Assembly: GCA_022616055.1 (NCBI GenBank) | Contig: JAKEFM010000240.1 | Span: 5,504-69,503 of the forward strand | From: Planctomycetota bacterium | GTDB taxonomy: Bacteria; Planctomycetota; UBA1135; JAKEFM01 | Reading direction: 5' to 3' | Length of the DNA: 64,000 nucleotides | Shown: positions 8,283-36,805 of the stretch, in pieces | Layout: every line of letters starts with the position of its first letter | Numbering within the stretch: the stretch's first letter is position 1 | Notes under the pieces: generated by a model | The model's input: the letters and a program-made list of their open reading frames with translations, nothing else | Database searches by the model: none | Told to the model about the DNA's origin: nothing | Made by a program: the position numbers and the translations under genes

Positions 8283-8341
8283 GACCGCGCTGGCCCCACC
8301 CTACCCGGCCCCGGGTTCCCGGCATCGCCGCCGACCCCGGC

Positions 8342-9259: not shown

Positions 9260-9266
9260 GGTCGAC

Positions 9267-20659: not shown

Positions 20660-20702
20660 GCCCCGGCCGCTGGCCGCGCGGAGCGGATCGAGCCCGGCGC
20701 GG

Positions 20703-22433: not shown

Positions 22434-22442
22434 GACGGACTC

Positions 22443-22991
22443 CTAGGGACGCTGCTCGGCCCCGGCGGCGCGGATGGCGGAGATGCGCTCCCGCAGGTCG
22501 GCGACTCGGACGTTCTTCTCGACCGCGAACCCCTCCCCGCGACCGAGGACGACGTCTCCCCTCGGCCCCCCCTCCACGCGGAAGAGGCCCCCGAACCCGG
22601 CGTAGAGGCTGTTGTAGTCCATCCCCTCGGCCGTCCGGCACGACTTCGAGAAGACGAGGGCTCGGGTGCCCACCCGGGTCTCCCGCGAGCTCGGGGATTC
22701 CGCGCACCAGGACTCCTTGTCCCGCGTGCGCCCCCCGAGGAAGGTGACGACGATCTCCTCCTCCCGTCCCGTGTAGAGGTTCTCCCCCCGCACCGTCACG
22801 CGCGTGACGATCTCGGAGACCCCGTTCATCGTCACCTCGGCCCCCGTCACGTCGACGATCGTCCCGGCGACGGCGGCGTTGGTCTTCCCGACCATCTTCG
22901 GGAGGTCGAGCCACTCGACCACGCGCGCGGAGGCGGCGGGGGCGAGGACGAGGAGAGGGAGGAGGGGGACGAACCGACGAAGCGGGAGCAT
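22443..22991 (-). CDS. secreted hypothetical protein
   Basis: ATG 22991 is preceded by GGAG. Signal peptide MLPLRRFVPLLPLLVLAPAASA. 9-nt gap to the downstream gene. No family recognised. Confidence 0.6.
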   Translation of the reverse strand: MLPLRRFVPLLPLLVLAPAASARVVEWLDLPKMVGKTNAAVAGTIVDVTGAEVTMNGVSEIVTRVTVRGENLYTGREEEIVVTFLGGRTRDKESWCAESPSSRETRVGTRALVFSKSCRTAEGMDYNSLYAGFGGLFRVEGGPRGDVVLGRGEGFAVEKNVRVADLRERISAIRAAGAEQRP

Positions 22992-23184
22992 CCGGTAGAT
23001 CTCCGCGCGGGGGGAAGCGGCGGGCATGGGCAAGTCGCGTTGCGAAGGAAGGATAGCCGTCATCGAAAGAGCCTGTCCAGCCGAAGGGCCACTCGAAGGA
23101 ATCGGGGCTCACGAGGTTAGCCTCGTCCGGGGGGGCGGTAACCGGGCCATCCGTCCCCGCCGTTATGCTCGGGGCCTTCGAGGG

Positions 23185-24213
23185 ATGCGTCCTCTCCCCG
23201 CCGCCGCCATCCTGCTCGCCGCCTGTCACGCCGCCTCCCCTGGGGGCGGACTCCCCGCGGAGGCAGCGGGGAGACCGGGCCCACTGGACGTCTCCCCCAT
23301 GCCCCCCTGGACCCGTCACCTCGAGGGGGTGAGGGTCGCGATCGACCCGGGCCACGGCGGCGACGCCGACCGCCCCGGGTACAAGCGGGGCCCGACGGGC
23401 GTCCGGGAGGCCGAGGCAAACCTGCGCGTGGCCCTCGCGCTCGCGGAGATGCTCGAGGCGGCCGGCGCGATCCCCGTGCTGACCCGCCGCGAGGACCGCG
23501 ACGTCCCTCTCGCCGAGCGGGCCCGGATCGCGGAGCGGGAGGCGTGCGACCTCTTCCTCTCGATCCACCACAACGCGATCTCGGACCCCTCGAGGAACTT
23601 CGGCACCGTCTGGGTGCACGCGGATCCCGACCACTCCCCCGCCTCCCTCGACCTCGCCTGGTCGATCCACCGGGAGGTCAACCGCATCCTCGACCTTCCG
23701 CAGTCGGTCCCCTGTCCGATCCTCTCCGATCGGCTCATGGTCGAGCGGGGCTTCGCCGTCCTCCGGGAGGCGAGCATGCCGGCGGTCCTCTCGGAGGCCT
23801 CGTTCCACACGAATCCGGAGGAGGAGCGCCGCCTCTCCGACCCCGAGTACAACCGCCGCGAGGCCTACGGCCACTTCCTCGGCCTCGCCCGCCACGCGGA
23901 GGGAGGCTTCCCGCGGGCGGCGCTCCTCGCGTCCCGCGTCGGACGCGCCGACCCCATATTGCGGATCGCCCTCGACGACGGGCTCCAGGCCCGCAAGGGA
24001 TGGGGGAGCGAGCGCCCCCGGATCCTCGCGGGGTCGATCTCGGTCCGGATCGACGGTCTTCCCGTCCGGCACCTCTACGACGGGGCCTCCGGCCGCGTCG
24101 CCGTCGACGCCTCGGGGCTCGGCGCCGGGGTCCACTCCCTCGACCTCCGGTTCGAGAACGTCTTCAAGCACTCGAACCACCCGACGCGGTTCGAGTTCGA
24201 GGTCGCCCCGTAG
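23185..24213 (+). CDS. N-acetylmuramoyl-L-alanine amidase (Amidase_3 family) lipoprotein
   Basis: ATG 23185. Lipobox LLAAC. Motifs VAIDPGHGG, E..NL..AL, FLSIHHNA, SEASFHTNPEE. Extra C-terminal ~100 aa of unknown function. Confidence 0.85.
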   Translation: MRPLPAAAILLAACHAASPGGGLPAEAAGRPGPLDVSPMPPWTRHLEGVRVAIDPGHGGDADRPGYKRGPTGVREAEANLRVALALAEMLEAAGAIPVLTRREDRDVPLAERARIAEREACDLFLSIHHNAISDPSRNFGTVWVHADPDHSPASLDLAWSIHREVNRILDLPQSVPCPILSDRLMVERGFAVLREASMPAVLSEASFHTNPEEERRLSDPEYNRREAYGHFLGLARHAEGGFPRAALLASRVGRADPILRIALDDGLQARKGWGSERPRILAGSISVRIDGLPVRHLYDGASGRVAVDASGLGAGVHSLDLRFENVFKHSNHPTRFEFEVAP

Positions 24214-24229
24214 AGGGCGCTCGCGCGGG

Positions 24230-25849
24230 TCAGGGGCCGGTGCGGCGCTCGACCTTCCCGGGCGGATCGGCGTGCTCGAGGTCGTTGCGCTTGAAGGTGA
24301 AGAGCCAGACCTCGGTCTCCCCCTCCCGCGCGAGCACGCTCATCGGGACGTAGCCTTCGCGGAACTCCGCGGAGGCGAGGACGAGGGCCCCGACCGCCGA
24401 GCCGGGCTTGCACGTCTCCCGGTCCGCGCTCGGGACGAAGACGTAGGAGGGGCGCTCCTTGAACAGGTGGCGGAGCAGCCGCTCCTCCCAGTCGGGGCCC
24501 GCCTCGCGCGGTGTGCGCGCGACGAAGTGGTCCGTGAGGCCGTTCCAGTCGATCGCCCGTCGTCCGCTCCAGTAGGGGAGGGCGCCGGCCCCGGGGCCGA
24601 GGACCCACGCGTCGGCCGCGGCGTTCTCCGCCAGCCACTTCCCCATCCGGACGCTCGCGCACTCCTCGAAGTCCATCCGGCGGAGCGATTCCGGGCGGAT
24701 ACGGCGAAGCGAGGTCCTCCACCCGCAGGCCGCGCAGGCGAGGAGGATCCCGCCGAGGAGGGTCGTGAGGAGGACGAACTCCCTCCGGACGGTCAGGCGG
24801 GCGGAGAGGGCCGCGCGGGTGTGGTCGAGGGCGCGCACGAAGAGGAGGAAGACGAAGGGGAGGGCCGGGACGAGGAGGCGGTGGTGCCCCTCCCCCTCCC
24901 CTCCCGAGGCGAGCTGGAGGAGGAGGCGGCCGGCGATCGCGAAGAGGGCGTACCCCTTCCACGGCTCCGCTCCGGCGCCGACGAGGGCGACCGCCGCCAT
25001 TCCGGCGAGGAGGAAGCCGCCGTGCTCGTCGAGGAGGGCGAGCGCGCGGTAGGCGCCCCGGGCCGCGAGCGCGAGGGCCTCGGCCGAGGGGCGCGCGTAG
25101 AACGCGTTCGGGAGGGGTTGCCCGGTGTAGGCGAACCGGGCGGCCCAGGCTCCGCCGGCGAGGATCAGGAAGACGCCGACCGGGGCGAGGAGCGCGCGGA
25201 CCAGGGGGAGCTGGGGCTCGAGGATGCGGTTCCGGGCCAGCCCGCGCCAGGCGAGGAAGAACGGGAAGGCGAGCGCCCCGTCGGGGCGCGCGAGGGCGAG
25301 CAGCGCCGCGAGCCCCCCCCAGACGACGTCGCCGCGCCCCGTCTTCGTCGCGCGCACCGCCATGTGCGTCGTGGCGAGGAGGAGGAAGACGAACATCGGC
25401 GTCTCCGCGCCCGCCGCCGTCTCGTAGGCGAAGGCGGAGCTGGAGGCGAGGAGGAGGGGAGCGGCGAGGGCGAGCCAGCGCCCGGCGAAGGGGATCTCCC
25501 GGACGAGGACGAGGAGGGAGGCCTGCGACCCGACGTGGAAGGCGATCCCCATCGCCTTCGAGAAGGCGAGCGTCCCGATCCCGAGCTTGGCGGCGAACGC
25601 GAGGAAAGTGACCCAGAGGAAGCTCGTGTAGCCGTCGGCCCGTTCGCCCGGGTTGAAGACGAGGCCGTTCCCCTGCGCGATGTTCTCCGCGTACCGGCAG
25701 TAGGTGTAGGCGTCCGCGGAGACGACCCTCCCGTAGAGGAGGGAGTGGAAGACCCCGAGGGCGATCACCGCGGCGGCCGCGATCCACCAGGATCGCGACG
25801 CCCCGGGAGGCGCCGGGGTGCTCTCCAGGGGGGACTCGGGCTCGGACAT
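24230..25849 (-). CDS. GT-C fold integral membrane glycosyltransferase (ArnT/PMT-like)
   Basis: ATG 25849. Multiple TM helices. First periplasmic loop DAYTYCRYAENIAQGNGLVFNPGERADGYTSFLW resembles the acidic-loop region of GT-C enzymes. Soluble C-terminal ~150 aa. Confidence 0.75.
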   Translation of the reverse strand: MSEPESPLESTPAPPGASRSWWIAAAAVIALGVFHSLLYGRVVSADAYTYCRYAENIAQGNGLVFNPGERADGYTSFLWVTFLAFAAKLGIGTLAFSKAMGIAFHVGSQASLLVLVREIPFAGRWLALAAPLLLASSSAFAYETAAGAETPMFVFLLLATTHMAVRATKTGRGDVVWGGLAALLALARPDGALAFPFFLAWRGLARNRILEPQLPLVRALLAPVGVFLILAGGAWAARFAYTGQPLPNAFYARPSAEALALAARGAYRALALLDEHGGFLLAGMAAVALVGAGAEPWKGYALFAIAGRLLLQLASGGEGEGHHRLLVPALPFVFLLFVRALDHTRAALSARLTVRREFVLLTTLLGGILLACAACGWRTSLRRIRPESLRRMDFEECASVRMGKWLAENAAADAWVLGPGAGALPYWSGRRAIDWNGLTDHFVARTPREAGPDWEERLLRHLFKERPSYVFVPSADRETCKPGSAVGALVLASAEFREGYVPMSVLAREGETEVWLFTFKRNDLEHADPPGKVERRTGP

Positions 25850-25915
25850 CGTCCCCGGATATCGGCAGATCCCCTCGCCGAACCTGGGCTCTCCCTTCCC
25901 GTCGCGGGAGGGGGG

Positions 25916-25921
25916 TATACT
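25916..25921 (+). promoter_or_regulatory. candidate -10 hexamer TATACT followed by CCGCC
   Basis: GGGGGTATACTCCGCC lies 47 nt upstream of the FG-GAP gene ATG (25968). It belongs to the recurrent TAnnnT-CCGCC pattern described in the findings. Confidence 0.25.
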
Positions 25922-25967
25922 CCGCCAGGGCGGAAAAGACCGGTTCCGAGAGCACCCCGTCGGATCC

Positions 25968-27902
25968 ATGCGCCATCGGGCCTTCGGACTTCAGGCTCGG
26001 CGAGTAGCCGTCGCTTCCTCGTTCCTCGCCTCCGCCGGTCTCGCGCAGAGTCCCGCGATCCTCCGCGCCGGCTCCCCCGGACCCGGGCTCACTCTCGCCT
26101 CGGGCTCTCACGTCGAGGACCACATGGGGGTGGCGGTGTCCGGCGGCGGGGACTTCAACGGAGACGGATACCCCGACCTGCTGATCGGCGGAGGGGCCGC
26201 GCAGATCGCGAGCGGGCTGCAGCCCGGCGCCGCGGCGATCGTCTACGGGGGTCCGTCGATGCCGCCGGTCACCTACCTCGGAGACACCTCCCCGGGGTCG
26301 GTGTACCTCCTCGGGCAGGCCGACGCGGACTTCGCGGGCTGGGCCCTCTCCTTCGCGGGAGACGTGAACGCCGACGGCTACGACGACGTCGTCGTCGGGG
26401 CCTACGCGGCGGACTCGGCGGGATCCCTCGACACGGGGGCCGCGTACGTGGTCTTCGGAGGGCCCGTCGCGACCGGCACCTATTCGCTCCCCAACCCGCC
26501 GATGGGGGGGATGGTGCTCCTCGGCGCGGAGCCGAACGAGCGCGTCGGATTCGCGGTCGCCGGCGCGGGGGACGTGAACGGGGACGGGTTCGACGACGTC
26601 CTCGTCGGGGCTCCCCTGGCCGACACCGCCGGCCTGATGGACGGGGGGAAGGTCTTTCTCCTCTACGGCTCGCCGAACCCGCCTCCCTTCCTCACCGAAG
26701 CGACGCTCGGCGCGAACGGGGTCGTGATGATCCCCGAGGCGGCGTTCGGGTCCGCGGGCTTCGCGGTCGCCGGGGCGGGGGACGTCAACGGGGACGGCCT
26801 CGACGACATGCTCGTCGGCTCGCCGACGTTCTTCACCGGAGGGGTCTTCGCCGGACGGGCCTACCTCGTGGCGGGAGGGCCGAGCCTCCCTCCGACCCTC
26901 CTCCTCGGCTCCGCGCTCGCGCTCATCTTCGGACCCCCCGAGAACGGTCTCTGCGGGCACGCCCTGGCCGGGGTCGGCGACCTCGATGCGGACGGGTACG
27001 ACGACATCCTCGTGGGGGCTCCGTACTACGACCCGCTCTCGCGGGCAGACGCCGGCTCGGCCTACCTCTTTCTCGGCGGGGCCTCCCTGTCGGGCTCGGT
27101 CCTCCTGCCGGGGGGCGTCGCGACCACCTTCGTCGGGGCGAACGACCTCGATCGGGCGGGCCAGGCGCTCTCCGGGGCGGGGGACGTCGACGGGGACGGG
27201 GTCCTCGACTTCCTCATCGGGGCTCCCTACTGGGACGACCCCGCCGGCGCGAGCGAGGGGAGGACCTACCTGATCCTCGGCGAGGTCCCGATGCCGGCCT
27301 ACGTCGACCTCGCGCTCCCGGGACGCTCGACCGTCGTCCTCCAGGGGACCGAGCCCGCGGGGATCCTCGGCTTCGCGCTCTCCGGATGCGGGGACGTCGA
27401 CGGGGACGGGTACGACGACGTCGTCGCCTGCGCGCCCTACGCGGATCCCCTCGGGCTCTTCAACGGCGGGACGAGCGCCCTCTTCTACGGGGGGAGGACC
27501 CCCGACGTCGTCGGGGCGGGCTGCTCGGGCTCGGCGGGCGCGGAGCCCCAGGCCTGGTTCTCGGGGGACTTCCCCCGCGTCGGCGCGTCCACCTTCGCCC
27601 TGACCCTCGGGGGAGCCACGCCGGGGAGCGTCGCCGCCCTCGCGGTCGGCGTGCCGCTCCCCCCGACCTGGCCAGGCATCCCCCTCGCCCAGTACGGGCT
27701 TCCCGGCTGCATGTTCCGGGTCCTCCCCTCGCTCCTCCTCAACACGGTCGTCGATCCGGACGGCGCGGCCGACTTCCCCACGCCGATCCCCAACTCCGCC
27801 TCCCTCCTCGGCTTCTCCGCCGACGTCCAGTGGGTGGTCGTCGGCCTCCCCGGTCCGTTCGTCTCCGCCTCGGACCCGATCCGGATCCTGGTCGGCCCCT
27901 GA
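25968..27902 (+). CDS. secreted FG-GAP (integrin-alpha-like) repeat protein
   Basis: ATG 25968 with a signal peptide. At least 7 repeats of the form G.(A/S).(A/G)GDVNGDG(Y/F)DD(V/L)(L/V)(V/I)GAP. Distinct C-terminal Cys-pair domain. Confidence 0.85.
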   Translation: MRHRAFGLQARRVAVASSFLASAGLAQSPAILRAGSPGPGLTLASGSHVEDHMGVAVSGGGDFNGDGYPDLLIGGGAAQIASGLQPGAAAIVYGGPSMPPVTYLGDTSPGSVYLLGQADADFAGWALSFAGDVNADGYDDVVVGAYAADSAGSLDTGAAYVVFGGPVATGTYSLPNPPMGGMVLLGAEPNERVGFAVAGAGDVNGDGFDDVLVGAPLADTAGLMDGGKVFLLYGSPNPPPFLTEATLGANGVVMIPEAAFGSAGFAVAGAGDVNGDGLDDMLVGSPTFFTGGVFAGRAYLVAGGPSLPPTLLLGSALALIFGPPENGLCGHALAGVGDLDADGYDDILVGAPYYDPLSRADAGSAYLFLGGASLSGSVLLPGGVATTFVGANDLDRAGQALSGAGDVDGDGVLDFLIGAPYWDDPAGASEGRTYLILGEVPMPAYVDLALPGRSTVVLQGTEPAGILGFALSGCGDVDGDGYDDVVACAPYADPLGLFNGGTSALFYGGRTPDVVGAGCSGSAGAEPQAWFSGDFPRVGASTFALTLGGATPGSVAALAVGVPLPPTWPGIPLAQYGLPGCMFRVLPSLLLNTVVDPDGAADFPTPIPNSASLLGFSADVQWVVVGLPGPFVSASDPIRILVGP

Positions 27903-27986
27903 CGGGCGGGGCGCTCCCTCGATAGCATGCCGCCGATCCCGCCGAGGCCGGCGGGTCCCGGAAACCGCATCCGCATGGAGGCCGCC

Positions 27987-28658
27987 ATGTCCGAACCCGC
28001 CACCCTGACCCCCGCACCGACCCTCCCGCGTCTGAACGAACCCGCCCCCGACTTCGAGGCGACGACCTCGCAGGGGTCCTTTCGCCTCTCGGAGAAGCGC
28101 GGGAAGTGGGTCGTCCTCTTCTCCCACCCCGCCGACTTCACGCCGGTCTGCACGACCGAGTTCGTCGAGTTCGCGAAGCGCTACGAGGAGTTCCGCAAGC
28201 GCAACGTCGAGCTCGTCGGCCTGTCCGTCGACTCCGGCTTCTCCCACATCGGCTGGATCCGGAACATCGAGTCGACCTTCAAGATCCAGATCCCCTTCCC
28301 CGTGATCGCCGACCGCGACATGCGGATCGCCCAGCTCTACGGGATGATCCACAAGGCGGCGAGCGACACGGCGACCGTCCGCTGCGTCTTCTTCATCGAC
28401 GACAAGGGGACGATCCGGGCGATGATCTACTACCCGATGACGAACGGGCGGAACATGGACGAGATCCTCCGCCTCGTCGACGCGATCCAGACGAGCGACA
28501 AGCACGCCTGCGCGACCCCGGCGAACTGGCGGCCCGGCGAGAAGGTCATCGTCCCCCCGCCGAAGACGACCGCGGACGCGACGAAGCGGACGACCGAGGG
28601 GTACGAGTGCAAGGACTGGTACCTCTGCTTCAAGGAGGTCCCCGCGACGAGCCGCTAG
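27987..28658 (+). CDS. 1-Cys peroxiredoxin (Prx6-like)
   Basis: Peroxidatic motif FSHPADFTPVCTTEF and a conserved C-terminal extension. ATG 27987 was chosen; alternatives are ATG 27975 and the annotated ORF start 27927. Confidence 0.9.
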   Translation: MSEPATLTPAPTLPRLNEPAPDFEATTSQGSFRLSEKRGKWVVLFSHPADFTPVCTTEFVEFAKRYEEFRKRNVELVGLSVDSGFSHIGWIRNIESTFKIQIPFPVIADRDMRIAQLYGMIHKAASDTATVRCVFFIDDKGTIRAMIYYPMTNGRNMDEILRLVDAIQTSDKHACATPANWRPGEKVIVPPPKTTADATKRTTEGYECKDWYLCFKEVPATSR

Positions 28659-28681
28659 CCCCGTCGCGCGCCGATTTCGCC

Positions 28682-28708
28682 GCCGCCGCCCCCCCCCGGG
28701 GCGGCGGC
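28682..28708 (+). terminator. GC hairpin immediately downstream of the peroxiredoxin gene (candidate terminator)
   Basis: An 11-bp perfect stem GCCGCCGCCCC / GGGGCGGCGGC with a CCCCC loop, followed only by TT (weak U tract). Confidence 0.4.
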
Positions 28709-28753
28709 TTCCGCATGCACGGCGCCGGTCCCGGGCCGACTTGACATCGTCCA

Positions 28754-28759
28754 TATCCT
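28754..28759 (+). promoter_or_regulatory. candidate -10 hexamer TATCCT for the riboswitch transcript
   Basis: An AT-rich island (CCATATCCTTTTTCC) 16 nt upstream of the riboswitch P1 helix. It is the same hexamer as upstream of pyrK. Confidence 0.25.
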
Positions 28760-28774
28760 TTTTCCTGGAGAGAA

Positions 28775-28869
28775 CGCCTTCATCCAGGGCAAACCGTCCG
28801 AAAGGGCGGGACGCAAAGCCAAGGGCCCACCCCCTCCTCTCGAGGGCGGGCAGCCGGTTGCTGAGGGCG
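28775..28869 (+). promoter_or_regulatory. cyclic-di-GMP-I (GEMM-I) riboswitch aptamer
   Basis: Core CAGGGCAAACCGUCCGAAAGGGCGGGACGCAAAGCC at 28785-28820. GAAA-capped hairpin at 28794-28809. Second hairpin at 28823-28855. 3' junction GGCAGCCGGUUGC. 8-bp closing helix CGCCUUCA/UGAGGGCG. It sits on the same strand as the next gene and 169 nt upstream of it. Confidence 0.8.
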
Positions 28870-29037
28870 CCATGGGGACTCATGGTGCAGGCAGCCGGAT
28901 TCCATCGGACGGAGCGGGGCGCGCGGCCCCTCCCTCCTCCCCTCCGGACCCCCTGCGCCGGGCCCCGCATCGCGCCCGCGGTCCCCTCCGAGGACCGCGG
29001 GATGGGCGCCGGAACGGTGCGCACAAGGGGGTTGGCC

Positions 29038-30177
29038 ATGAATCAAGGGTCTCGCCGGGGTTCCGTCCTCTTCATCCTCCTCTTCTCGGTCGTGCTCGTC
29101 GGGGGGGCGATCGCCTCCCTCGTCTCGGTCGAGCAGGCCCGCTCGAGCGCCTCCCGCACCGACTGCGAGCGCCAGCGCGCCTTCGCCCTCGCGGAGTCGG
29201 CGACGGACACCGTCGCCGTCCTCCTCAACGCGAACGCCTGGCCCGCGGGGACCACCCTCGACTGGTCGGCCGACGGGATCGACAACGACGGGGACGGGCT
29301 CGCCGACGAGGGGGACGAGTCGCTCCGGGCGACGGCGGACCTCTGGGGCTCGGACGCCGCCGACAACGACGGCGACGGGTCGGTCGACGAGTCCGACGAG
29401 CGGATCGCGCGGGTCTCCGCGACGGTGGACCTCGGCACCTCGCAGAGCCGGATGACGAGCTGGCTGCGCCTCGTCGAGGCCTCCCTGCCGGAGACGGTCC
29501 CCGCACCCCTCACCCTCCTCGACCCGAACGCCGACGTCGACTTCGACGGGAACGCGTTCCGCGTCAACGGCGCGGACACGAACCTCGACGGCACGCTGGC
29601 GGGCGCCTCGACCTACGGGATCGCGATCGACGGATCCCCCACGCAGGTGAAGACCCAGCTCACCACGAAGGAGAAGCTCCTCGTCTCCGGGCTGGGCGGG
29701 GCTCCGAGCGTCGGGTCCTGGTCGCCGGGCACGACCAACTACGTCCAGTCGATGGTCGACGCCTTCCGCCCCTACGCCGACATCACCTTCAACAACTTCG
29801 GCAAGTCCTACACGGGAACCCTCGGGGACTGGAAGACCTCGAACTACCTCGTCACCTACTCCCACGGGTCGCTCCAGATCTCCGGCGGCTCGACCGGCGC
29901 CGGCGTCCTCCTCGTCGAGGGGGACCTCGAGATCTCGGGGGGGTGGGACTACGTCGGGTACGTCTTCGTCACCGGCAGGGTTCGCTTCGTCGGCGGCGGG
30001 GAGGGGGTCCGCCTGCAAGGGGTGATGTTCGTCGGCGGGGACGTCCTCCAGCCTACCGGGACGCTCCTCGACGCGCTCCTCTCCGGGACCGTCGACCTCG
30101 TCTACTCCTCGGAGGCCCTCCGGCGGGTCCGTGCCGGGGTCGGCAACTACCAGGTCACCGCGATCACCGAACCCTAG
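29038..30177 (+). CDS. PilX-N-like membrane-anchored protein with two DxDxDG calcium-binding-type motifs and a beta-helix-like C-terminus
   Basis: ATG 29038 is preceded by AAGGGGG. N-terminus MNQGSRRGSVLFILLFSVVLVGGAIASL resembles the PilX N-terminal domain. IDNDGDGLADEGDE and ADNDGDGSVDESDE motifs. C-terminal G-rich repeats (GSLQISGG...GDLEISGG...GRVRFVGGGEG). Confidence 0.75.
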   Translation: MNQGSRRGSVLFILLFSVVLVGGAIASLVSVEQARSSASRTDCERQRAFALAESATDTVAVLLNANAWPAGTTLDWSADGIDNDGDGLADEGDESLRATADLWGSDAADNDGDGSVDESDERIARVSATVDLGTSQSRMTSWLRLVEASLPETVPAPLTLLDPNADVDFDGNAFRVNGADTNLDGTLAGASTYGIAIDGSPTQVKTQLTTKEKLLVSGLGGAPSVGSWSPGTTNYVQSMVDAFRPYADITFNNFGKSYTGTLGDWKTSNYLVTYSHGSLQISGGSTGAGVLLVEGDLEISGGWDYVGYVFVTGRVRFVGGGEGVRLQGVMFVGGDVLQPTGTLLDALLSGTVDLVYSSEALRRVRAGVGNYQVTAITEP

Positions 30178-30289
30178 GACGGCCACGGTCGTCCGCGTTC
30201 TCTCCTCGCGGCCGCGGAAACCCCGCGGCCGCCCTGTTTCCCCCCCTTCCCCGCCTCCGGGGCCCCCGCTAGCGTCCCCGGCACCCCCG

Positions 30290-31045
30290 ATGCCGCGCAC
30301 GCTTCACCGCCCTGCTCGAGCCCGCGGCGCGAGGAAGCCCGCGAGGCGGAAGGGGAGGAAGTTCGACCTCGAGGCCGCGCGCCCCCGCGCCCTCGCGATC
30401 GCGCGCCTCCTTCACGAGGCCCACCCGGGGGCGACCTGCGCGCTCCGGCACGAGGGCCCCCTCCAGCTCCTCGTCGCGACGATCCTCTCCGCGCAGTGCA
30501 CGGACGCGCGGGTGAACCTCGTCACCCCCGACCTCTTCGCCCGCTTCCGGACGGCCGCCGACTTCGCGGGCGCCCCGCGAGGCGCCCTCGAGCGCGCCAT
30601 CCGCTCCTGCGGCTTCTACAACGCGAAGGCGAAGTCGATCCGCGGCGCCTGCCGGCGCCTCGTCGAGGCGTACGGGGGGGAGGTCCCCCGGAGGATGGAG
30701 GACCTCCTCACTCTCCCCGGCGTCGCCCGCAAGACCGCGAACGTCGTCCTCGGCACCGCCTTCGGCATCCCGTCGGGGTTCGTCGTCGACACCCACGTCC
30801 ACCGCCTGGCGCAGCGGCTCGCGCTGACGGGCCAGGACACGCCGGAGAAGATCGAGACGGACCTGACGGTCCTCTTCCCCCGGGGGGAGTGGATCTTCGC
30901 CGGGCACGCCCTCATCTGGCACGGCCGGCTCGTCTGCCAGGCGCGGAAGCCCGCCTGCCACCGCTGCACCCTCCGCGACCTCTGCCCCTTTGAGCCGAAG
31001 ACTCCGGCGCCCGAAGGGGAGTTATTCGCCGACCCTTCCGCCTGA
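30290..31045 (+). CDS. nth: endonuclease III
   Basis: HhH-GPD motif LPGVARKTANVVL, catalytic-region residues, and the 4Fe-4S cluster C-X6-C-X2-C-X5-C (CQARKPACHRCTLRDLC). ATG 30290. Confidence 0.9.
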   Translation: MPRTLHRPARARGARKPARRKGRKFDLEAARPRALAIARLLHEAHPGATCALRHEGPLQLLVATILSAQCTDARVNLVTPDLFARFRTAADFAGAPRGALERAIRSCGFYNAKAKSIRGACRRLVEAYGGEVPRRMEDLLTLPGVARKTANVVLGTAFGIPSGFVVDTHVHRLAQRLALTGQDTPEKIETDLTVLFPRGEWIFAGHALIWHGRLVCQARKPACHRCTLRDLCPFEPKTPAPEGELFADPSA

Positions 31046-32908
31046 GGGGACCCGACCGGTCCCGGCCGCTCCCGGGACCTTGGAGGCGTGCTCCCGCAGG
31101 ATGCGTAGGACCTCGGCGATGGCCTTCGGGTTCTCGTGGATGTCGTGGCCCCCCTCCACCACGAGCTCGGAGGCGGCGCCCTCGAGGTGGGCGCTCTCGT
31201 AGGGGACCACGCCGTCCGTGCCCTCCGGCCCCATCTTCCGGGTCCGATCCCCGAGGATGCTGTGGTAGGTCACCCACGGAGCGATCGGGATCTGCGCCAG
31301 CGCCCGCAGGACCACGTGCGAGGGAGAGAGCACGTCCACGCTGCTCGGCGCGGCGAGCGTCTCCGGCCGCATCGCGCCGGGGTTCCGCGTCTCCACCTCC
31401 TTGGCGAAGTCCGACACCCTCCTGGGGTGGGAGAGGAGGAGATCGCCGAGCCTCCCGATGAAGGAGTCGGCCTCGGCGCTACCGCGGTGGGGAGCCGCGA
31501 GGAAGATCGCCCGTCGGACGAACGGGAGTGGCTCGAAGAAAAAGGTCCTCTCCGCGTACTGGCGGCCCTCCTCGGAGAGGTCGAGGGTCGAGAGGGGCTT
31601 CGCGAACCGCGCATCCCAGAGGCGCTCGCCGCTGTGCTGGAGGACCGTCTTGACGAGGACCCCGCCCAGGCTGTGACCGACGAGGACGAGGTCCGCGGTC
31701 GCGGGGTCGTCCCCTTCCGGGTCGAGGTCCTTCCGGACCCGGACCAGGGCCTCGCGCAGGTCGCGGGCGTTGTTCAGGACGGGGGCGCCCGTCGGATAGG
31801 TGTAGTGCCAGACCTGATAGCGGGCGCGGAGGGCCTCCTCGCCCCAGATCTCGTTCGTGAGGTCCCGCCACTTGAGGGGGCTCGACCACAGGCCGTGGAC
31901 GAGGACGACGGGGATCTTTCCCGCGTCGTAGGCCTCGACGAGGAAGATGCCCTGACGCACGCGCTTCGCGTCCGGGTCGAAGAACGCCGTGTTCTTGAGG
32001 GAGGGGAGCCGGGAGCGGGCGAGGAGGTAGGCATAGGGCGCGGTGAGGTCGGCGGCGATCGGGACCGTCCGTCCTCCGATGTCCCGCGTCGACGTGCGCC
32101 AAGGATTCGAGAGGACGATCGCGAGGGTCCCTTCCCTCGATCCGGGCAGGAGGAGGAGGGTCGCCGGGTAGGCGCGACCCTCGGGGGGGTAGTAGGGCTC
32201 CTGCCTCGAGGGGACTCCCTCGCGAAGTCCGATCAGGGGGACCCCGAGGCCGGGCCTCGCGTGACGGGACCGGAAGCCGCGGATCGCGAACCGCACGGAG
32301 GGGAGGAGATCGTCGAAGAACTCCGGACCCCACTCCCCCTCCGCCGGCTCCGGGCGCTCGATGTCGTAGCGGCCCGAGAGACTCTCGAGCGCGGTCCATC
32401 CGGCGGGAGGACCCGAGGTCCGACACTTCCGGACGAAGAACTCCGACCCGGCGTAGTTGTAGAGGTCCTGGAGGATGGCGAAGCGAGGGTCGAACGCCGG
32501 GTCGACCGGCCAGGGTCGCAGGAGGGCGCGGAGGGAGACGAGGGCCGCCTCGAGGAAGGCAGGGGCGGCTTCGCGGTCCAGCCTGTGCTGCGCCCGGAGG
32601 CAGAGGAGCTCGGCCAGGAGGAGGGATATCCCGGGCTCCGGGGCGGGGAGAGGAGTGAGGGCCGCGAGCGCCTCCTCCGGCTTGGCCTCGAGGAGGCGCT
32701 CCTCCCCGAGCGCGCGGAGGAGGTTCTCCGAGGGGAGGCTCAGCCGGTCTCCTCCGGCCGCGCTCCTCCCCCGGTCGGCGAACCCCTCCCTCGCCCCGAT
32801 CTCCCGGACGGAGACGGGGTTCGTCGAGCAGGCGCACGCGAGCGCCGCGAGGAGGAGGAGGGGGAGCGACCCGCTCCTCCGGGGGCCGCGCGTTCCGGCC
32901 TCCTTCAT
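31022..32908 (-). CDS. alpha/beta-hydrolase (lipase/esterase-like) lipoprotein
   Basis: ATG 32908. Lipoprotein-like signal LLLLAALACACS. Nucleophile elbow VGHSLGG. Only the 3' 628 codons of track ORF 31022..35002 are credible. Confidence 0.8.
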   Translation of the reverse strand: MKEAGTRGPRRSGSLPLLLLAALACACSTNPVSVREIGAREGFADRGRSAAGGDRLSLPSENLLRALGEERLLEAKPEEALAALTPLPAPEPGISLLLAELLCLRAQHRLDREAAPAFLEAALVSLRALLRPWPVDPAFDPRFAILQDLYNYAGSEFFVRKCRTSGPPAGWTALESLSGRYDIERPEPAEGEWGPEFFDDLLPSVRFAIRGFRSRHARPGLGVPLIGLREGVPSRQEPYYPPEGRAYPATLLLLPGSREGTLAIVLSNPWRTSTRDIGGRTVPIAADLTAPYAYLLARSRLPSLKNTAFFDPDAKRVRQGIFLVEAYDAGKIPVVLVHGLWSSPLKWRDLTNEIWGEEALRARYQVWHYTYPTGAPVLNNARDLREALVRVRKDLDPEGDDPATADLVLVGHSLGGVLVKTVLQHSGERLWDARFAKPLSTLDLSEEGRQYAERTFFFEPLPFVRRAIFLAAPHRGSAEADSFIGRLGDLLLSHPRRVSDFAKEVETRNPGAMRPETLAAPSSVDVLSPSHVVLRALAQIPIAPWVTYHSILGDRTRKMGPEGTDGVVPYESAHLEGAASELVVEGGHDIHENPKAIAEVLRILREHASKVPGAAGTGRVPSGGRVGE

Positions 32909-32940
32909 CGCGCCTCGAGCATGGTCCGGTCCCGGCCGGA

Positions 32941-34881
32941 TCAGAACGCGCCGCAGTCGCAGGCGAGCGCGGGTCCCGGCTCCCGGCCGGAGTCCCGTTC
33001 TCCGAGGACGCGGCGCTCGGCGCGACCATGGAGCGGCCCTCCGGCCGCGCCCGGGGACGCGCCCCGGCGGGCGCCGCCGGCGGCCGCGACGGGCGACCAG
33101 CCCGGACTCACGGGGAGCGGCCCCGGACCGAGGGGCGCGAACTCCGCGGCGGCGTGGACGATCCTCCCCGCGAGGAGGGTGAGGACCGACTCGATCCCCC
33201 GGATCTCCCGTTCGGGAACCGAGAAGTAGTCGGCGGACAGGACTGCGAGATCGGCGAGCTGCCCGGGCGCGATCGCGCCCTTCTTCCCCTCCTCGCTCGA
33301 GAACCAGGGGGCCGCGCTCGTGTAGAGCCGGAGCGCTTCCATCCGGTCGAGCCGGTTCGACTCGGGATAGAGCGCCAGGCCGCCGACCGTCCTCCCGCTG
33401 ACGAGCCACTGGAGCGCCACCCACGGGTTGTAGCTCGCCACGCGCGTCCCGTCGGTCCCGGCGGCGACGGGGAGGCCGGCCCGGAGCATCCCCGCGATCG
33501 GGGGCGCGGCGGCGGCCGCCTCCGCGCCGTACCGCGCGACGAAGTGCTCCCCCTGGTAGGCCATCCGGTGCTGGATCGCGATGCCGCCGCCGAGCGCGCG
33601 CACGCGGTCGATGTTCCGGGGCGAGATCGTCTCGGCGTGGTCGAAGAACCAGTGGAGCCCGTCGAAGGGGACCTCCCGGTCCACCTTCTCGAAGACCCCG
33701 AGGAACCGGGAAATCGACTCGTCGTAGGTCGCGTGGAGGCGGAAGGGCCACCGGTGCCGGGCGAGGTGGCGGACGACAGCCTCGAGCTCCCCTTCGAGGG
33801 AGGCGGAGAGGTCGGGACGGGGCTCGAGGAAGTGCTCGAAGTCGGCGGCCGAGTAGACGAGCATCTCCCCTGCGCCGTTGACGCGATAGAGGTCGTCGCC
33901 GCGGCCCGGCGCCGTCCGGCCCGTCCACCTCGAGAAGTCGTCGAGCTCCCCGCCCGGCCGCTGGGTGAAGAGGTTGATCGCGATCCGGAGCGTCAGCTCC
34001 CCCCGGCGGTGGAGCTCCTCCACGACCGCGTAGTCCTCGGGGTAGTTCTGGAATCCGCCCCCCGCGTCGATGGCGCTCGTCAGTCCGAGGCGGTTCAGCT
34101 CGCGCTGGAACTGGCGGGCGGAGTTGATCCGGTCCTCCCCCGCGAGGGTCGGCGCCGCCGAGAGGGTCTTGTAGAGGAGGAAGGCGTTCGGCTTGGCGAG
34201 GAGGAGCCCGCTCGGCTCCCCCTTCCCGTCGCGCTCGATCACGCCCCCCGGCGGCGCGGGCGTGTCCTTCGTCCAGCCGAGCGCCCTCAGCGCCGCGCGG
34301 TTGAGGAGCGCCCGATCGTAGAGGTGGAGGACGAAGACCGGGACGTCGGGGGAGGCGGCCTCGATCTCCTCGAGCGTCGGCATCCGCCGCTCCGCGAACT
34401 GGAACTCGCTCCAGCCGCCGACCACCCGCACCCACTGGGGGGCGGGGGTGCGCGCCGCCTGCTCCTCGAGCCGGCGCAGCGCGTCGGCGAGGGAGGGGAT
34501 CCCGTCCCAGCGCAGCTCGAGGTTGTAGTGGAGCCCTCCCCGGACGACGTGCAGGTGGGAGTCGTTCAGCCCCGGGACGACGGTCTTCCCCCGGGCGTCG
34601 AGGAGCCGCGTTCCCGGTCCCCGGTGGGCGAGGACCGCCTCCTCCTCGCCGACGGCGAGGAACCGCCCCTCGCGCACCGCCAGCGCGCGGACGAAGGGGC
34701 GTCGCGGGTCGAGCGTGGCGATCCGCCCGTTCGCGAGGATGAGATCCGCGGAGTCCTTCCGGTTCCGATCGAGCATGCCGCATCCTCCGATCGCGGAGGC
34801 GATCCCCAGGGCGAGACCGCCTCCGAGGAACTCGCGTCGCGTGGGCTCCGCCGCCCCGAGCCCCCCGTGATCGGCTCCCAC
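32941..34881 (-). CDS. Tat-exported amidohydrolase-family metallohydrolase (Amidohydro_3/YtcJ-like)
   Basis: Twin-arginine signal TRREFLGGGLALGIASAIGGC. Metal motif LNDSHLHV. Later HATYDE and GTDG motifs. GTG start. Confidence 0.85.
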   Translation of the reverse strand: MGADHGGLGAAEPTRREFLGGGLALGIASAIGGCGMLDRNRKDSADLILANGRIATLDPRRPFVRALAVREGRFLAVGEEEAVLAHRGPGTRLLDARGKTVVPGLNDSHLHVVRGGLHYNLELRWDGIPSLADALRRLEEQAARTPAPQWVRVVGGWSEFQFAERRMPTLEEIEAASPDVPVFVLHLYDRALLNRAALRALGWTKDTPAPPGGVIERDGKGEPSGLLLAKPNAFLLYKTLSAAPTLAGEDRINSARQFQRELNRLGLTSAIDAGGGFQNYPEDYAVVEELHRRGELTLRIAINLFTQRPGGELDDFSRWTGRTAPGRGDDLYRVNGAGEMLVYSAADFEHFLEPRPDLSASLEGELEAVVRHLARHRWPFRLHATYDESISRFLGVFEKVDREVPFDGLHWFFDHAETISPRNIDRVRALGGGIAIQHRMAYQGEHFVARYGAEAAAAAPPIAGMLRAGLPVAAGTDGTRVASYNPWVALQWLVSGRTVGGLALYPESNRLDRMEALRLYTSAAPWFSSEEGKKGAIAPGQLADLAVLSADYFSVPEREIRGIESVLTLLAGRIVHAAAEFAPLGPGPLPVSPGWSPVAAAGGARRGASPGAAGGPLHGRAERRVLGERDSGREPGPALACDCGAF

Positions 34882-34895
34882 CGCCGGGTCCGGGG

Positions 34896-34967
34896 CTACT
34901 TCTTGGCCTTGGCGTCGAGCAGGACGGCCGCGTCGTCTTTCGAGAGCCGCTTGTAGGAATCGCCCAT
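34896..34967 (-). CDS. candidate 23-aa small ORF (MGDSYKRLSKDDAAVLLDAKAKK)
   Basis: Below the track cutoff. ATG is preceded by AGGAGA at 5-nt spacing. 21 of 23 codons end in G or C, like real genes here. Its stop is 14 nt before the amidohydrolase start. No homology recognised. Confidence 0.3.
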   Translation of the reverse strand: MGDSYKRLSKDDAAVLLDAKAKK

Positions 34968-35118
34968 GTCGGTCTCCTGTCGCGCCGGGGCCCGCGCGGC
35001 AATCGGGGTCCTATCCGGGGCGTGGGGAGGGATCAAGGAGGGGAGGACGGCCCCTCAACCCGGGGGGGAGGAGGGGCCGATAGGCGTTCCGCCGCCACTC
35101 GAACCGGGGGGTTGCACC

Positions 35119-36369: not shown

Positions 36370-36376
36370 GGGTCCA

Positions 36377-36412
36377 CCGGGACGGGGGGAGTTCGACCTC
36401 CCCCCGTCCCGG
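36377..36412. terminator. perfect 15-bp GC hairpin between convergent genes (candidate bidirectional terminator)
   Basis: CCGGGACGGGGGGAG-ttcgac-CTCCCCCCGTCCCGG, lying between the stops at 36369 (+) and 36425 (-). No U tract on either side. Confidence 0.55.
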
Positions 36413-36424
36413 GGACCGCGCGAC

Positions 36425-36805
36425 TCAGGAGGGGACCTGCGCGTCGGAGTTCGGGACCCCTCCGAACCTCCGGGGGAGCAGGTCTCCCAGCCTCCAGACC
36501 CAGGTCTCGGCCTCGGGCCCGCCCGACGCCGGGATCCGGATCGTCGGGGGCCGGACGCCGATCTCCTCGCATCCGAGGCGCTCGATCTCCGTGCGGATCT
36601 GGCGCAGCGCGGTGCGGTGGTCGGCGGCCTCGGCCGTCAGGAGCCGGGCCTCGGCGCCGCGCCCGCGCCCCCGCTTCTCCATCCGGCGCAGGTCGCCGGC
36701 GATCCGGCGCAGGAGTTCGTCGCGCTCCCGCACCTCGCGGGCGATCGACTCGAGGAGGGGGAGGAGCGCCAGGGCCTCGTTCCACTCGTAGGCTCTCGGT
36801 CTCAT
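36425..36805 (-). CDS. DUF2203-like protein
   Basis: ATG 36805 overlaps the ECF sigma stop (ATGA). N-terminus MRPRAYEWNEALALLPLLESIAREV and C-terminal LGCEEIGVRPPTIRIPA...TWVWRLGD fit the DUF2203 pattern as I remember it. No TM segment. Confidence 0.6.
   Translation of the reverse strand: MRPRAYEWNEALALLPLLESIAREVRERDELLRRIAGDLRRMEKRGRGRGAEARLLTAEAADHRTALRQIRTEIERLGCEEIGVRPPTIRIPASGGPEAETWVWRLGDLLPRRFGGVPNSDAQVPS

Follow-up and report, generated by a model that had tools for sequence, protein, structure and literature searches.

Nucleotides 28775–28869 on the + strand of the window, by which we mean the whole 64-kb stretch of DNA that was analyzed, are highly likely to form a class I cyclic-di-GMP riboswitch aptamer (GEMM-I, RF01051 type) in the leader of the gene at 29038–30177. 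When the whole 64 kb was searched against Rfam on either strand, a single match reached the gathering threshold, at 28779–28866 (+) with 61.4 bits and an E of 4.7e-12. The same element occupies the same position in three orthologous loci, with 62.2 bits in L004, 62.9 bits in L245 and 61.4 bits, under RF01051, in L246. Since the match is the only one in 64 kb and the element is conserved across four orthologous loci, it lies far beyond chance. An earlier note on this DNA had proposed a c-di-GMP-I (GEMM-I) element here, and the Rfam match together with the three further loci bears this identity out. In this DNA of 73% GC, the folding energy of the region by itself is not distinctive when compared with shuffled sequences (z-score −0.35 for 28770–28875 and −0.94 for 28775–28869). 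The evidence for the element is therefore its fit to a covariance model and its conservation, not its stability. The features discussed below are collected in Table 1.

Table 1. Features of the leader and the gene it precedes, in window coordinates.
Feature	Coordinates	Strand	Details and basis
GC-rich hairpin, arms GCCGCCGCCGCC / GGCGGCGGC, tail UUCCG, directly after peroxiredoxin gene stop	28679..28708	+	sequence, fold
TTGACA, candidate −35 hexamer	28741..28746	+	alignment
c-di-GMP-I (GEMM-I) aptamer, P1 5' strand to P1 3' strand	28775..28869	+	Rfam, orthologs
P1 5' strand CGCCUUCA	28775..28782	+	pairs with UGAGGGCG 28862-69, 8 bp, one G-U; invariant in four orthologs
G, equivalent to Vc2 G20	28788	+	register set by G21-C46 and C22-G45 pairs in Rfam alignments
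P1b hairpin CCGUCC-GAAA-GGGCGG, GAAA tetraloop 28800-03	28794..28809	+	Rfam alignment, fold
C, equivalent to Vc2 C44, predicted partner of G83 (28853)	28812	+	Rfam alignment; within GGGAC; invariant
A, equivalent to Vc2 A47	28815	+	Rfam alignment: RF03167 consensus GACGCGAA, window GACGCAAA, RF01051 consensus GACGCAAA
P2 helix; AA bulge 28821-22, AG bulge 28852-53 with G83 equivalent	28817..28859	+	Rfam alignment, fold
P2 variable distal hairpin CCCUC/GAGGG	28832-46	+	fold
Anti-aptamer stem-loop	28854..28898	+	alifold consensus, MFE, shuffles
C, equivalent to Vc2 C92	28861	+	Rfam alignment: ...UGC, then P1 3' strand; invariant
Proposed relay strand, GGUGCAGG (28884-91) and CCGGA (28895-99)	28884..28899	+	complementarity, constrained folds
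Hairpin H2, G-rich strand GGACGGAGCGGGGC and part of C/U tract	28907..28940	+	fold, ortholog alignment
Anti-SD ACCCCCU, perfect complement of AGGGGGU 29026-32	28948..28954	+	sequence; invariant in four orthologs
Hairpin H3, 10-bp stem, 7-nt loop, inside SD/anti-SD enclosure	28975..29001	+	fold, compensatory changes
Shine-Dalgarno AAGGGGG 29025-31, 6-nt spacer, conserved start ATG 29038-40	29025..29040	+	sequence, alignment
Regulated gene, 379-aa protein, long hydrophobic N-terminal helix and beta-solenoid	29038..30177	+	ORF, model

The three helices of the junction, namely P1, a GNRA-capped P1b closed by the G21-C46 and C22-G45 pairs, and P2 with its AG bulge, are drawn alike by the Rfam structure lines and by the minimum free energy (MFE) structure of 28775–28869, and they are kept in all four orthologs. 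The parts listed in the earlier note were recovered as described: CAGGGCAAACCGUCCGAAAGGGCGGGACGCAAAGCC at 28785–28820, the GAAA-capped hairpin CCGUCC/GGGCGG, the second hairpin at 28823–28855 with its inner stem CCCUC/GAGGG, the 8-bp closing helix and the G at 28788 equivalent to Vc2 G20, whose register comes from the Rfam alignments. The ligand-contact positions G20 (28788), A47 (28815) and C92 (28861) are in their c-di-GMP-specific states and are invariant in the four orthologs. In known aptamers, G20 touches one ligand guanine and an A at this position is the mark of cGAMP-type variants (PMC6140456, PMC4744006), A47 inserts between both ligand bases (PMC4744006, PMC6140456), and C92 pairs with the second ligand guanine in Watson-Crick fashion (PMC6140456). 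The nucleotides of the C44-G83 interhelical Watson-Crick pair (28812/28853), which is described as universally conserved in GEMM riboswitches (PMC4744006, PMC11705072), are likewise present and invariant. The P1b pair 28797/28806 differs among the orthologs (U-G, C-G, U-A and C-A), and it is in the distal loop of P2 that the aptamer's variable and indel columns are concentrated. In the window P2, CCCAC.../...GCG stands where the RF01051 consensus has its canonical 11-nt GAAA-tetraloop receptor (CUAAG...UAUG). This receptor region was very variable among 241 canonical aptamers collected with a crude regular expression. GEMM ‘type 2’ RNAs, according to Weinberg et al. 2007, reportedly lack tetraloop-receptor docking altogether, so docking is a variable and not a defining trait of the class. 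At a guess, the lone A at 28829 in the P2 internal loop could replace A62.

The top Rfam label of the window element is not RF01051 itself; it is RF03167, the ‘GGC’ variant. The orphan c-di-GMP-I-GGC variant reportedly originates in the variant screen of Weinberg et al. 2017, and from the model consensus we take ‘GGC’ to mean positions 20/47/92 (G20/G47/C92). The label brings up the alternative that the RNA is a specificity variant and not a c-di-GMP sensor, either of the orphan RF03167 type or of the 3'3'-cGAMP (GEMM-Ib) type. RF03167 does rank first in its clan for the window, L004 and L245 (61.4–62.9 bits against a cut-off of 59), and the P2 receptor region is unlike the RF01051 consensus, but the position after which the variant is named argues otherwise. 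The window element passes the RF03167 score at 61.4 versus 59 bits, yet its nucleotide 28815 is A and not the defining G47 of that consensus, as it is in all three orthologs. Nor does it belong with the cGAMP sensors, which are recognized by an A at position 20 (PMC6140456), as 28788 is G by alignment register; the c-di-GMP-type reading that the earlier note had based on this nucleotide was upheld. Ortholog L246, which equals the window at nearly all aptamer positions, is labeled RF01051, at 61.4 bits against a gathering score of 35, and its RF01051 alignment shows the canonical GACGCAAA.

How much the RF03167 label says was judged from control loci. Two scans with the pattern GGCAAACCNNNCGAAAGNNNGGGACGCAAAGCCNNGGG each returned at least 120 matches, which are canonical GEMM-I aptamers across many phyla; no orthologous leaders were among the matches listed, the pattern being too general. 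From these scans 20 control loci were chosen, each selected for a core with A47, and 13 of the 21 aptamer matches in them also received the RF03167 label. Since canonical A47 cores get it this often, the label does not discriminate, and it arises because related models compete for the same aptamer; the ligand-binding site here is of the canonical type. Beneath the RF03167 match in the window, one more member of the clan likewise reached its own gathering score in the Rfam scan. It is almost certainly RF01051, whose own score for the window is masked by the clan filter; searches with a trimmed P1 or with an E-value cut-off likewise display RF03167 only. A score below the Rfam gathering threshold, which the earlier note had listed as grounds for rejecting the element, was thus not what we found, either for RF03167 in the window or for RF01051 in L246. 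Taken together, a specificity variant is very improbable, and the element at 28775–28869 can be predicted from its sequence with great confidence to be a GEMM-I aptamer that senses c-di-GMP. More generally, the RF03167 model often beats RF01051 on canonical aptamers, so that clan-filtered annotation can wrongly assign ordinary c-di-GMP riboswitches to an orphan class if position 47 is not looked at.

The four loci compared, the window with L004, L245 and L246, are closely related sequences. The relatives are deposited as ‘Planctomycetota bacterium’ MAGs and belong to an uncultured, soil-derived lineage. In L004 the flanking gene order is kept as well, namely FG-GAP protein, peroxiredoxin, the regulated gene and endonuclease III. 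Across the four loci, 87 of the 95 aptamer columns are invariant, and the invariant columns make up 82% of the leader versus 67% of the coding sequence, the downstream proteins being 61–87% identical to that of the window. The check for covariation in orthologous leaders, which the earlier note had suggested, gave a divided answer: compensatory changes occur at four pairs of hairpin H3, and there are almost none elsewhere in the expression platform, as only four closely related sequences were available.

The longest ORF through this region, 28741..30177 with a TTG start, reads through the element and is present in the ORF list as the earlier note had said. It could be argued from this open frame that the element is the N-terminal coding part of a 478-aa protein starting at TTG 28741, or else an inactive aptamer relic. 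The NCBI CDS call in L246, whose GTG start lies within the leader, 17 nt past the aptamer, and the folding energy of the aptamer, no better than that of shuffles, would agree with such readings. The orthologs, however, speak against both. TTG 28741 and the ATG share a frame in the window only, where they are 297 nt apart; in the three orthologs the distance is 295 or 296 nt, the frame being lost through indels in the P2 loop. Variable sites are spread over the codon phases as 14/16/19 in the leader, without periodicity, versus a periodic 111/68/122 in the coding sequence, the changes in H3 are compensatory for RNA pairing, and the predicted extension has no protein-like conservation. Moreover, no ligand- or tertiary-contact nucleotide changes among the orthologs, although protein identity falls to 61%, which is not expected of a decaying relic. 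A relic or a coding origin is thus extremely improbable. The conserved start is the ATG at 29038 behind the Shine-Dalgarno (SD) sequence AAGGGGG, and the JGI gene calls in L245 and L004 begin at the homologous ATG; the view of the earlier note that the TTG extension is spurious therefore stands. The call in L246 illustrates that spurious extensions do occur in public annotation. With the gene model corrected to ATG 29038, the aptamer ends 168 nt before the start codon on the same strand within a leader of about 265 nt; longest-ORF or upstream-GTG calls bury this regulatory RNA.

Upstream, the leader is bounded by the terminator-like hairpin at 28679–28708. Its folding energy is −28.3 kcal/mol and its 3' arm and UUCCG tail are invariant in the orthologs; the terminator scan, which asks for a U tract, does not report it. 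The block 28740–28774 that follows is nearly invariant as well. It begins with a TTGACA, which we infer may be part of a promoter; the promoter scan found no acceptable −10 for it and no sigma-70-type site on the + strand. A sigma-54 promoter inside the leader was also considered, as the copies of GGCAGCCGG resemble the GGCA-N6-TTGC motif of the paralogs described below, and was rejected: one copy is misspaced and the other has TTCC/TTCG instead of TTGC.

The earlier note had been unable to define the switch. The element missing from that reading is a conserved stem-loop at 28854–28898 that is mutually exclusive with P2, C92 and P1. Its outer helix pairs CCGGUUGCU (28854–62) with GGCAGCCGG (28890–98) and its inner helix pairs GCGCCAUGG (28867–75) with UCAUGGUGC (28880–88). 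Since it is built from the P2 3' strand, C92 and the P1 3' strand, its formation excludes the ligand-binding fold. The 9-nt GGCAGCCGG is a repeat, present at 28849–57, in the 3' strand of the aptamer itself, and again at 28890–98. When the 130-nt transcript of each of the four orthologs is folded, the MFE structure contains the stem-loop, and with no ligand energy counted that structure is more favorable by about 11 kcal/mol than the fold in which the aptamer is enforced. On its own the stem-loop folds at −27.5 kcal/mol (z −4.15), a value matched by 0 of 200 shuffles. Its loop nucleotides 28877–79 vary while its stem does not, and G28894A in L246 converts a U-G pair of the stem to U-A. The stem-loop is followed by AUUCCAU (tail AUUCCAUCGG) and not by a U tract, and a terminator scan for a GC-rich hairpin with an immediate U tract found no intrinsic terminator on the + strand. 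The putative terminators that follow neighboring genes in this lineage have few U residues as well (tails UUCCG and CUUUC), so the stem-loop may still serve as a terminator.

Between the stem-loop and the start codon, the SD, the ATG at 29038 and the C/U tract at 28927–45 were all located where the earlier note had placed them. Its suggestion that the C/U tract pairs with the SD did not hold up. The tract is mostly paired locally in hairpin H2, and the invariant ACCCCCU at 28948–54 is the better partner; the tract was accordingly dropped as anti-SD. The wider duplex of 28945–60 with 29020–40 has an energy of −19.7 kcal/mol. With the anti-aptamer stem-loop enforced, the SD is paired in all four orthologs (unpaired probability 0.01–0.09). 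The register of H2 is ambiguous because of the C/U repeats; the hairpin shows one compensatory change (A28909-U28935 to G-C in L245), and its region, 28899–28962, is no more stable than shuffles (z +0.39). H3 is the better-marked hairpin, at −21 kcal/mol (z −4.22) with the compensatory changes noted above, and it has no U tail.

We propose that c-di-GMP binding would lock the aptamer, block the stem-loop at 28854–28898 and so turn the gene ON. Two outputs are conceivable and weigh about equally. In the first, transcriptional, the stem-loop would be a U-poor terminator that works when no ligand is bound. In the second, translational, the relay strand 28884–99, when released from the stem-loop, would pair with 28943–59, GGUGCAGG with CCUGCGCC (28952–59) and CCGGA with UCCGG (28943–47), thereby covering part of the anti-SD and holding it off the SD. 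The constrained folds lend the relay pairing little weight: with the aptamer enforced, the relay helices are the MFE structure in L004 only and are worse by 3.8 kcal/mol in the window, 6.6 in L245 and 11.8 in L246. As the SD accessibility calculated for free and aptamer-enforced folds is inconsistent across the orthologs, a translational switch is not claimed as proven.

The same aptamer could also have another output, as an OFF switch or through transcript stability or Rho-dependent termination at 28920–28979. That stretch holds 37 C versus 15 G, and such a C-rich, G-poor composition is typical of Rho loading sites. The thermodynamic models leave the SD on the anti-SD in both states in three of the four orthologs, and the + strand scan offers no canonical terminator. 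The c-di-GMP riboswitches of class I turn genes OFF in C. difficile, whereas V. cholerae has both ON and OFF versions, neither with a terminator; their polarity cannot be extrapolated between species (PMC6366702). Against this, the aptamer and the stem-loop at 28854–98 are the sole clear pair of mutually exclusive structures, and we found none that would silence the gene only when ligand is bound. The stem-loop either resembles the local U-poor terminator-like hairpins or frees the anti-SD, and either way the gene would be OFF without ligand. We therefore regard these other outputs as rather unlikely, and the proposed ON polarity as an evenly balanced prediction.

The riboswitch is likely a cis-regulator of the gene at 29038–30177, which is solitary. 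In the AlphaFold model of its product (pLDDT 82.7), a helix of residues 4–64 is followed by a beta-solenoid. The best Foldseek matches in the PDB are ComZ 6qvi (E 4e-5, probability 0.97–0.99, with low TM-scores of 0.21–0.25) and ice-binding-type solenoids. The protein has no Pfam match at E ≤0.01; at E ≤10 there is just a chance-level match (E 0.94), and PF14341 is absent. By eye, no canonical G/FxxxE prepilin cleavage motif is seen in it. The distant family members P0046 and P0047 carry PF14341 (PilX_N), and paralogs adjoin genes for prepilin N-methyl domains. As judged from the model and these relatives, the product resembles a ComZ/PilX-like minor-pilin-type protein. Riboswitches for c-di-GMP are known to be associated with adhesion and pilus genes (PMC6366702), and a pilin-like product agrees with this. 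Two diguanylate-cyclase domains used as probes revealed no GGDEF-domain gene by tblastn in the 64-kb window or among the best matches listed for the fetched loci; the same probes did recover GGDEF genes in other loci.

The paralogs of the gene are arranged differently. They form tandem arrays, every copy being equipped with a terminator hairpin and a sigma-54-type −24/−12 promoter motif (GGCA-N6-TTGC) of its own. No GEMM riboswitch precedes the paralogs in L001, L002 and L247 at the Rfam gathering threshold or at E ≤0.1, and a regular-expression search found none before those in L248–L251. It is tentatively possible that c-di-GMP chooses the tip or minor pilin variant, the dispersed paralog having swapped the sigma-54-type promoter for a TTGACA-type block and a riboswitch with an unusually long, nearly invariant, terminator-less GGCAGCCGG-repeat platform. 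If so, this would be a natural case of regulatory subfunctionalization of pilin paralogs, with RpoN control versus second-messenger RNA control, and a new GEMM-I expression-platform architecture in a high-GC, uncultured phylum-level group. The link between c-di-GMP signaling and one pilin- or adhesin-like protein provides a testable handle on what this protein does in an uncultured soil-derived lineage without genetics. The element adds a member to a well-known RNA family and is no new element type; nothing changes in the knowledge of the riboswitch class.

In comparison with Vc2 and RF01051, the window element has the same P1, GAAA-capped P1b and P2 with AG bulge, the same core GGCAAACC...GAAA...GGGACGCAAAGCC, and the same G20, A47, C92 and C44/G83 nucleotides. 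The CAG before G20 agrees with Vc2 as well, in the sequence quoted by the earlier note. As is usual for RF01051, the element is located on the sense strand in the 5' leader of a gene of envelope or adhesion type, with an alternative structure that overlaps the 3' side of the aptamer. It differs in that P2 has a GC-rich distal extension instead of a recognizable CUAAG/UAUG receptor, the platform of about 170 nt is nearly invariant and has no U-tract terminator, and the host lineage is uncultured. With RF03167 it shares the outline of P1, P1b and P2 and the pattern of single-nucleotide deletions in the P2 3' strand; it has A at position 47, however, and CAG before G20 where the variant consensus has AAA, and many canonical A47 aptamers of other phyla likewise score higher with RF03167 than with RF01051.

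Among characterized systems, the C. difficile Cdi-2-4 riboswitch (class II, upstream of pilA1) and the B. thuringiensis Bc2 riboswitch (class I, at a collagen-adhesin gene) are ON switches whose ligand-free fold holds a terminator (PMC6366702). Both resemble the arrangement here in that a c-di-GMP riboswitch directly precedes a pilus or adhesin gene and in the ON logic we propose. Cdi-2-4, however, belongs to another aptamer class, and both use canonical terminators in low-GC Firmicutes, whereas the window stem-loop lacks a U tract and the gene behind it is a single minor-pilin-like paralog. As to the protein, PF14341 is found in its distant relatives P0046 and P0047 and not in the window protein itself. 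The match to ComZ, the minor pilin of the Thermus thermophilus competence pilus (6qvi), is distant by TM-score and the solenoid also resembles DUF3494 ice-binding-type folds, yet in the predicted model the window protein shares with ComZ a long hydrophobic helix at the N terminus and a large beta-solenoid behind it.

Rfam 15 was searched at gathering thresholds with both strands of the entire window, and a single match was returned on either strand, at 28779-28866 (+) with 61.4 bits and an E-value of 4.7e-12 in clan CL00126. The sequence features on which the earlier note had based a GEMM-I riboswitch were all found to the nucleotide. The folding energy of the aptamer is unremarkable against shuffles in this 73% GC DNA (z -0.35 for 28770-28875 and -0.94 for 28775-28869). 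Since folding energy alone is not distinctive, the identification depends on the covariance-model score and on sequence conservation. The earlier finding is real and its interpretation essentially right, and we conclude that by its predicted family the element is a canonical c-di-GMP-I aptamer.

Features of the riboswitch leader and its upstream neighbours
Feature	Sequence	Position	Strand	Basis or remark
Secreted FG-GAP repeat protein		25818-27902		upstream neighbour in window
1-Cys peroxiredoxin		27927-28658		upstream neighbour in window
P1 helix	CGCCUUCA with UGAGGGCG	28775-82 with 28862-69	+	sequence
Aptamer core	CAGGGCAAACC	28785-95	+	sequence
P1b hairpin	CCGUCC-GAAA-GGGCGG	28794-28809	+	sequence
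P1b 3' side into P2	GGGACGCAAAGCC	28808-20	+	sequence
Second hairpin		end at 28859	+	sequence
Outer helix	CCGGUUGCU with GGCAGCCGG	28854-62 with 28890-98	+	anti-aptamer stem-loop
Enclosed hairpin	GCGCCAUGG/UCAUGGUGC	28867-88	+	inside outer helix
SD	AAGGGGG	29025-31	+	ATG at 29038

The regulated 379-aa protein has 48 homologs at E-values up to 0.001, and nearly all of those with a named source belong to MAGs whose deposited name is 'Planctomycetota bacterium'. The true orthologs number three, with protein identities to the window of 87% (L245), 84% (L246) and 61% (L004); L004 shares with the window the order FG-GAP protein, 1-Cys peroxiredoxin, gene, endonuclease III. The aptamer occupies the same place in all three. 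Among the four sequences, 87 of the 95 aptamer columns are invariant, variation being confined to the distal loop of P2 and to the pair 28797/28806 of P1b. Invariant columns make up 82% of the whole leader, as against 67% of the coding region. Leader substitutions by codon position (14/16/19) show no periodicity, whereas those of the CDS (111/68/122) do. The conserved block upstream extends over 24230-28658 in the window and 826-5253 in L004 and includes, besides the FG-GAP protein and the peroxiredoxin, a large minus-strand membrane protein without a Pfam match. The FG-GAP protein is possibly another surface or adhesion component adjoining the riboswitch-controlled gene.

The mechanically called ORF 28741..30177 with its TTG start, which had been noted as reading through the element, does occur in the ORF list. 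This TTG lies 297 nt from the ATG in the window but 295 or 296 nt from it in the three orthologs, and the two are in frame only in the window among the four sequences. This marks the extension as an artefact of GC-rich DNA with few stop codons. The conserved start is ATG 29038, and the JGI gene calls in L245 and L004 begin at the corresponding ATG. In L246 (188-1265; NCBI GCA_050730375.1, JBOHNB010000616.1), the deposited CDS starts at a GTG within the leader, 17 nt past the aptamer; the conserved ATG follows 156 nt later, so that this CDS gains a spurious 52-residue N-terminus. Owing to the 73% GC content, ORFs of great length overlap in several frames on both strands at 20656-36791 of the window, such as 24075..29039 (-) of 1654 aa and 28780..30300 (-) of 506 aa, the latter lying antisense to the true gene. 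Coding regions in the window therefore cannot be told from the length of an ORF.

The label reported for the match was RF03167 (c-di-GMP-I-GGC, cut-off 59), beneath which one lower-scoring clan member, also above its own cut-off, was hidden. From the RF03167 consensus, we take 'GGC' to denote positions 20/47/92. In the alignment, the consensus GACGC-G-AA stands against GACGC-A-AA in the window. With the Vc2 register fixed by the G21-C46 and C22-G45 pairs of the Rfam structure line, the window has the canonical c-di-GMP triplet of G20 (28788), A47 (28815) and C92 (28861). These three nucleotides contact the ligand in Vc2 (PMC4744006; PMC6140456), and cGAMP sensors are marked by A at position 20 (PMC6140456). 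The tertiary pair C44/G83 of the aptamer (PMC4744006; PMC11705072) has its equivalents in C28812 and G28853. As a control for the label, Rfam was run on 20 loci, 18 from pattern scans plus orthologs L245 and L246, each picked by a core containing A47. RF03167 was assigned to 13 of the 21 aptamer matches and RF01051 (cut-off 35) to 8, so the competition between the two models is uninformative on position 47. The L246 aptamer, which departs from that of the window in only a few positions, was labelled RF01051 at 61.4 bits. Given A at 28815, the A47 controls sharing the label and the L246 assignment, we regard identity with the RF03167 variant as very unlikely. The window deviates from the RF01051 consensus only in P2, where it has a GC-rich internal loop and distal hairpin instead of the 11-nt GAAA-tetraloop receptor (CUAAG...UAUG); this region is highly variable across the c-di-GMP-I family. 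Clan-filtered Rfam output can mislabel ordinary c-di-GMP-I riboswitches as the orphan GGC variant, because RF03167 outscores RF01051 on so many matches in these A47-core loci (L021-L183 set).

The predicted c-di-GMP-I aptamer has an alternative structure. The 9-nt direct repeat GGCAGCCGG occurs at 28849-57, within the aptamer, and at 28890-98; the second copy pairs with sequence overlapping the first, namely CCGGUUGCU, made up of the 3' strand of P2, C92 and the first nucleotide of P1. The resulting anti-aptamer stem-loop has an energy of -27.5 kcal/mol (z -4.15, 0/200 shuffles) and appears in the alifold consensus. It is included in the MFE of the 130-nt transcript in the window and all three orthologs, an MFE about 11 kcal/mol below the aptamer-enforced fold. 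Its loop varies among the four sequences and its stem does not, the sole stem substitution, G28894A in L246, converting U-G to U-A. We regard this modelled alternative as robust. Further downstream, the anti-SD ACCCCCU (28948-54) is a perfect complement of AGGGGGU (29026-32), invariant in the four sequences; the wider duplex amounts to -19.7 kcal/mol, and a covarying hairpin, H3 (28975-29001, z -4.22), sits between anti-SD and SD. Another ACCCCCU, at 28829-28835 in the distal P2 hairpin, is paired with the SD in the global MFE of the window, and is probably incidental since all three orthologs carry one C fewer (ACCCCU).

Two routes of control may be envisaged. In the first, the stem-loop at 28854-28898 would act as a U-poor terminator. 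Its tail, AUUCCAU, is similar to UUCCG, the tail of the hairpin that follows the peroxiredoxin gene; the stem-loop falls short of the canonical criterion of the terminator scan. In the second, locking of the aptamer would free 28884-99 to pair with 28943-59, so that some of the anti-SD would already be occupied when the SD is transcribed. If the stem-loop is enforced in the fold, the SD is paired in the window and all three orthologs (unpaired probability 0.01-0.09). If the aptamer is enforced, L004 is the sole sequence in which these relay helices (28884-99 with 28943-59) form the optimum; they are worse by 3.8 (window), 6.6 (L245) and 11.8 kcal/mol (L246). Both routes predict an ON switch, to which we would give about an even chance. 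The polarity of class I c-di-GMP riboswitches is not transferable from other species (PMC6366702).

Paralogs of the regulated gene form tandem arrays that adjoin prepilin N-methyl-domain genes. No GEMM element was detected in these arrays, up to E 0.1 in L001, L002 and L247 or by regular expression in L248-L251, so the riboswitch is a feature of the dispersed paralog alone, the copy flanked by the peroxiredoxin and endonuclease III genes. Directly after the stop codon, every spacer between paralogs in the arrays (L001 3179-10000 and L002 6129-11408) has a GC hairpin that ends in a short tail of the CUUUC type. Of nine spacers examined, eight contain exactly one GGCA-N6-TTGC motif, at 55-111 nt from the start codon that follows; the ninth has GGCAGGGCGCTTGCG, seen by eye and excluded by the last base of the search pattern. 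The motif is spaced like a sigma-54 -24/-12 promoter and precedes a conserved block rich in purines; it was absent outside the spacers in these two loci bar one reverse-strand palindrome match. The arrays therefore appear to be under RpoN control, in contrast to the window's riboswitch-controlled paralog. The second GGCAGCCGG copy with ATTCC resembles the paralogs' motif but was rejected as sigma-54-type because TTCC/TTCG replaces TTGC. The only GGCA-N6-TTGC in the 64-kb window is GGCAGTCGCGTTGCT at 63876-63890 (+), near its end. In L002, from a related MAG, a group II intron (7646-9500) lies between two pilin-like paralogs, as judged by Rfam D1-D4 and Intron_gpII matches and an RT/maturase ORF (8010-9428).

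The riboswitch belongs to a very well-known class and occurs in a new lineage, ahead of a plausible target. Useful but minor extras are the RF03167 label, which misleads, the stem-loop that competes with the aptamer, and the difference from the paralogs with sigma-54-type motifs. The window protein had no family match in a Pfam search; PilX_N (PF14341) occurs in its most distant homologs. An AlphaFold model (pLDDT 82.7), for which 35 homologs were used, has a helix at residues 4-64 and then a beta-solenoid. The PDB entries that match it best are ComZ (E 4e-5, probability 0.97-0.99, low TM), which is the minor pilin of the competence pilus in Thermus, and solenoids of the ice-binding type. Pilus or adhesin genes are known targets of c-di-GMP riboswitches (PMC6366702), and by analogy such a target here would fit known c-di-GMP riboswitch regulons.
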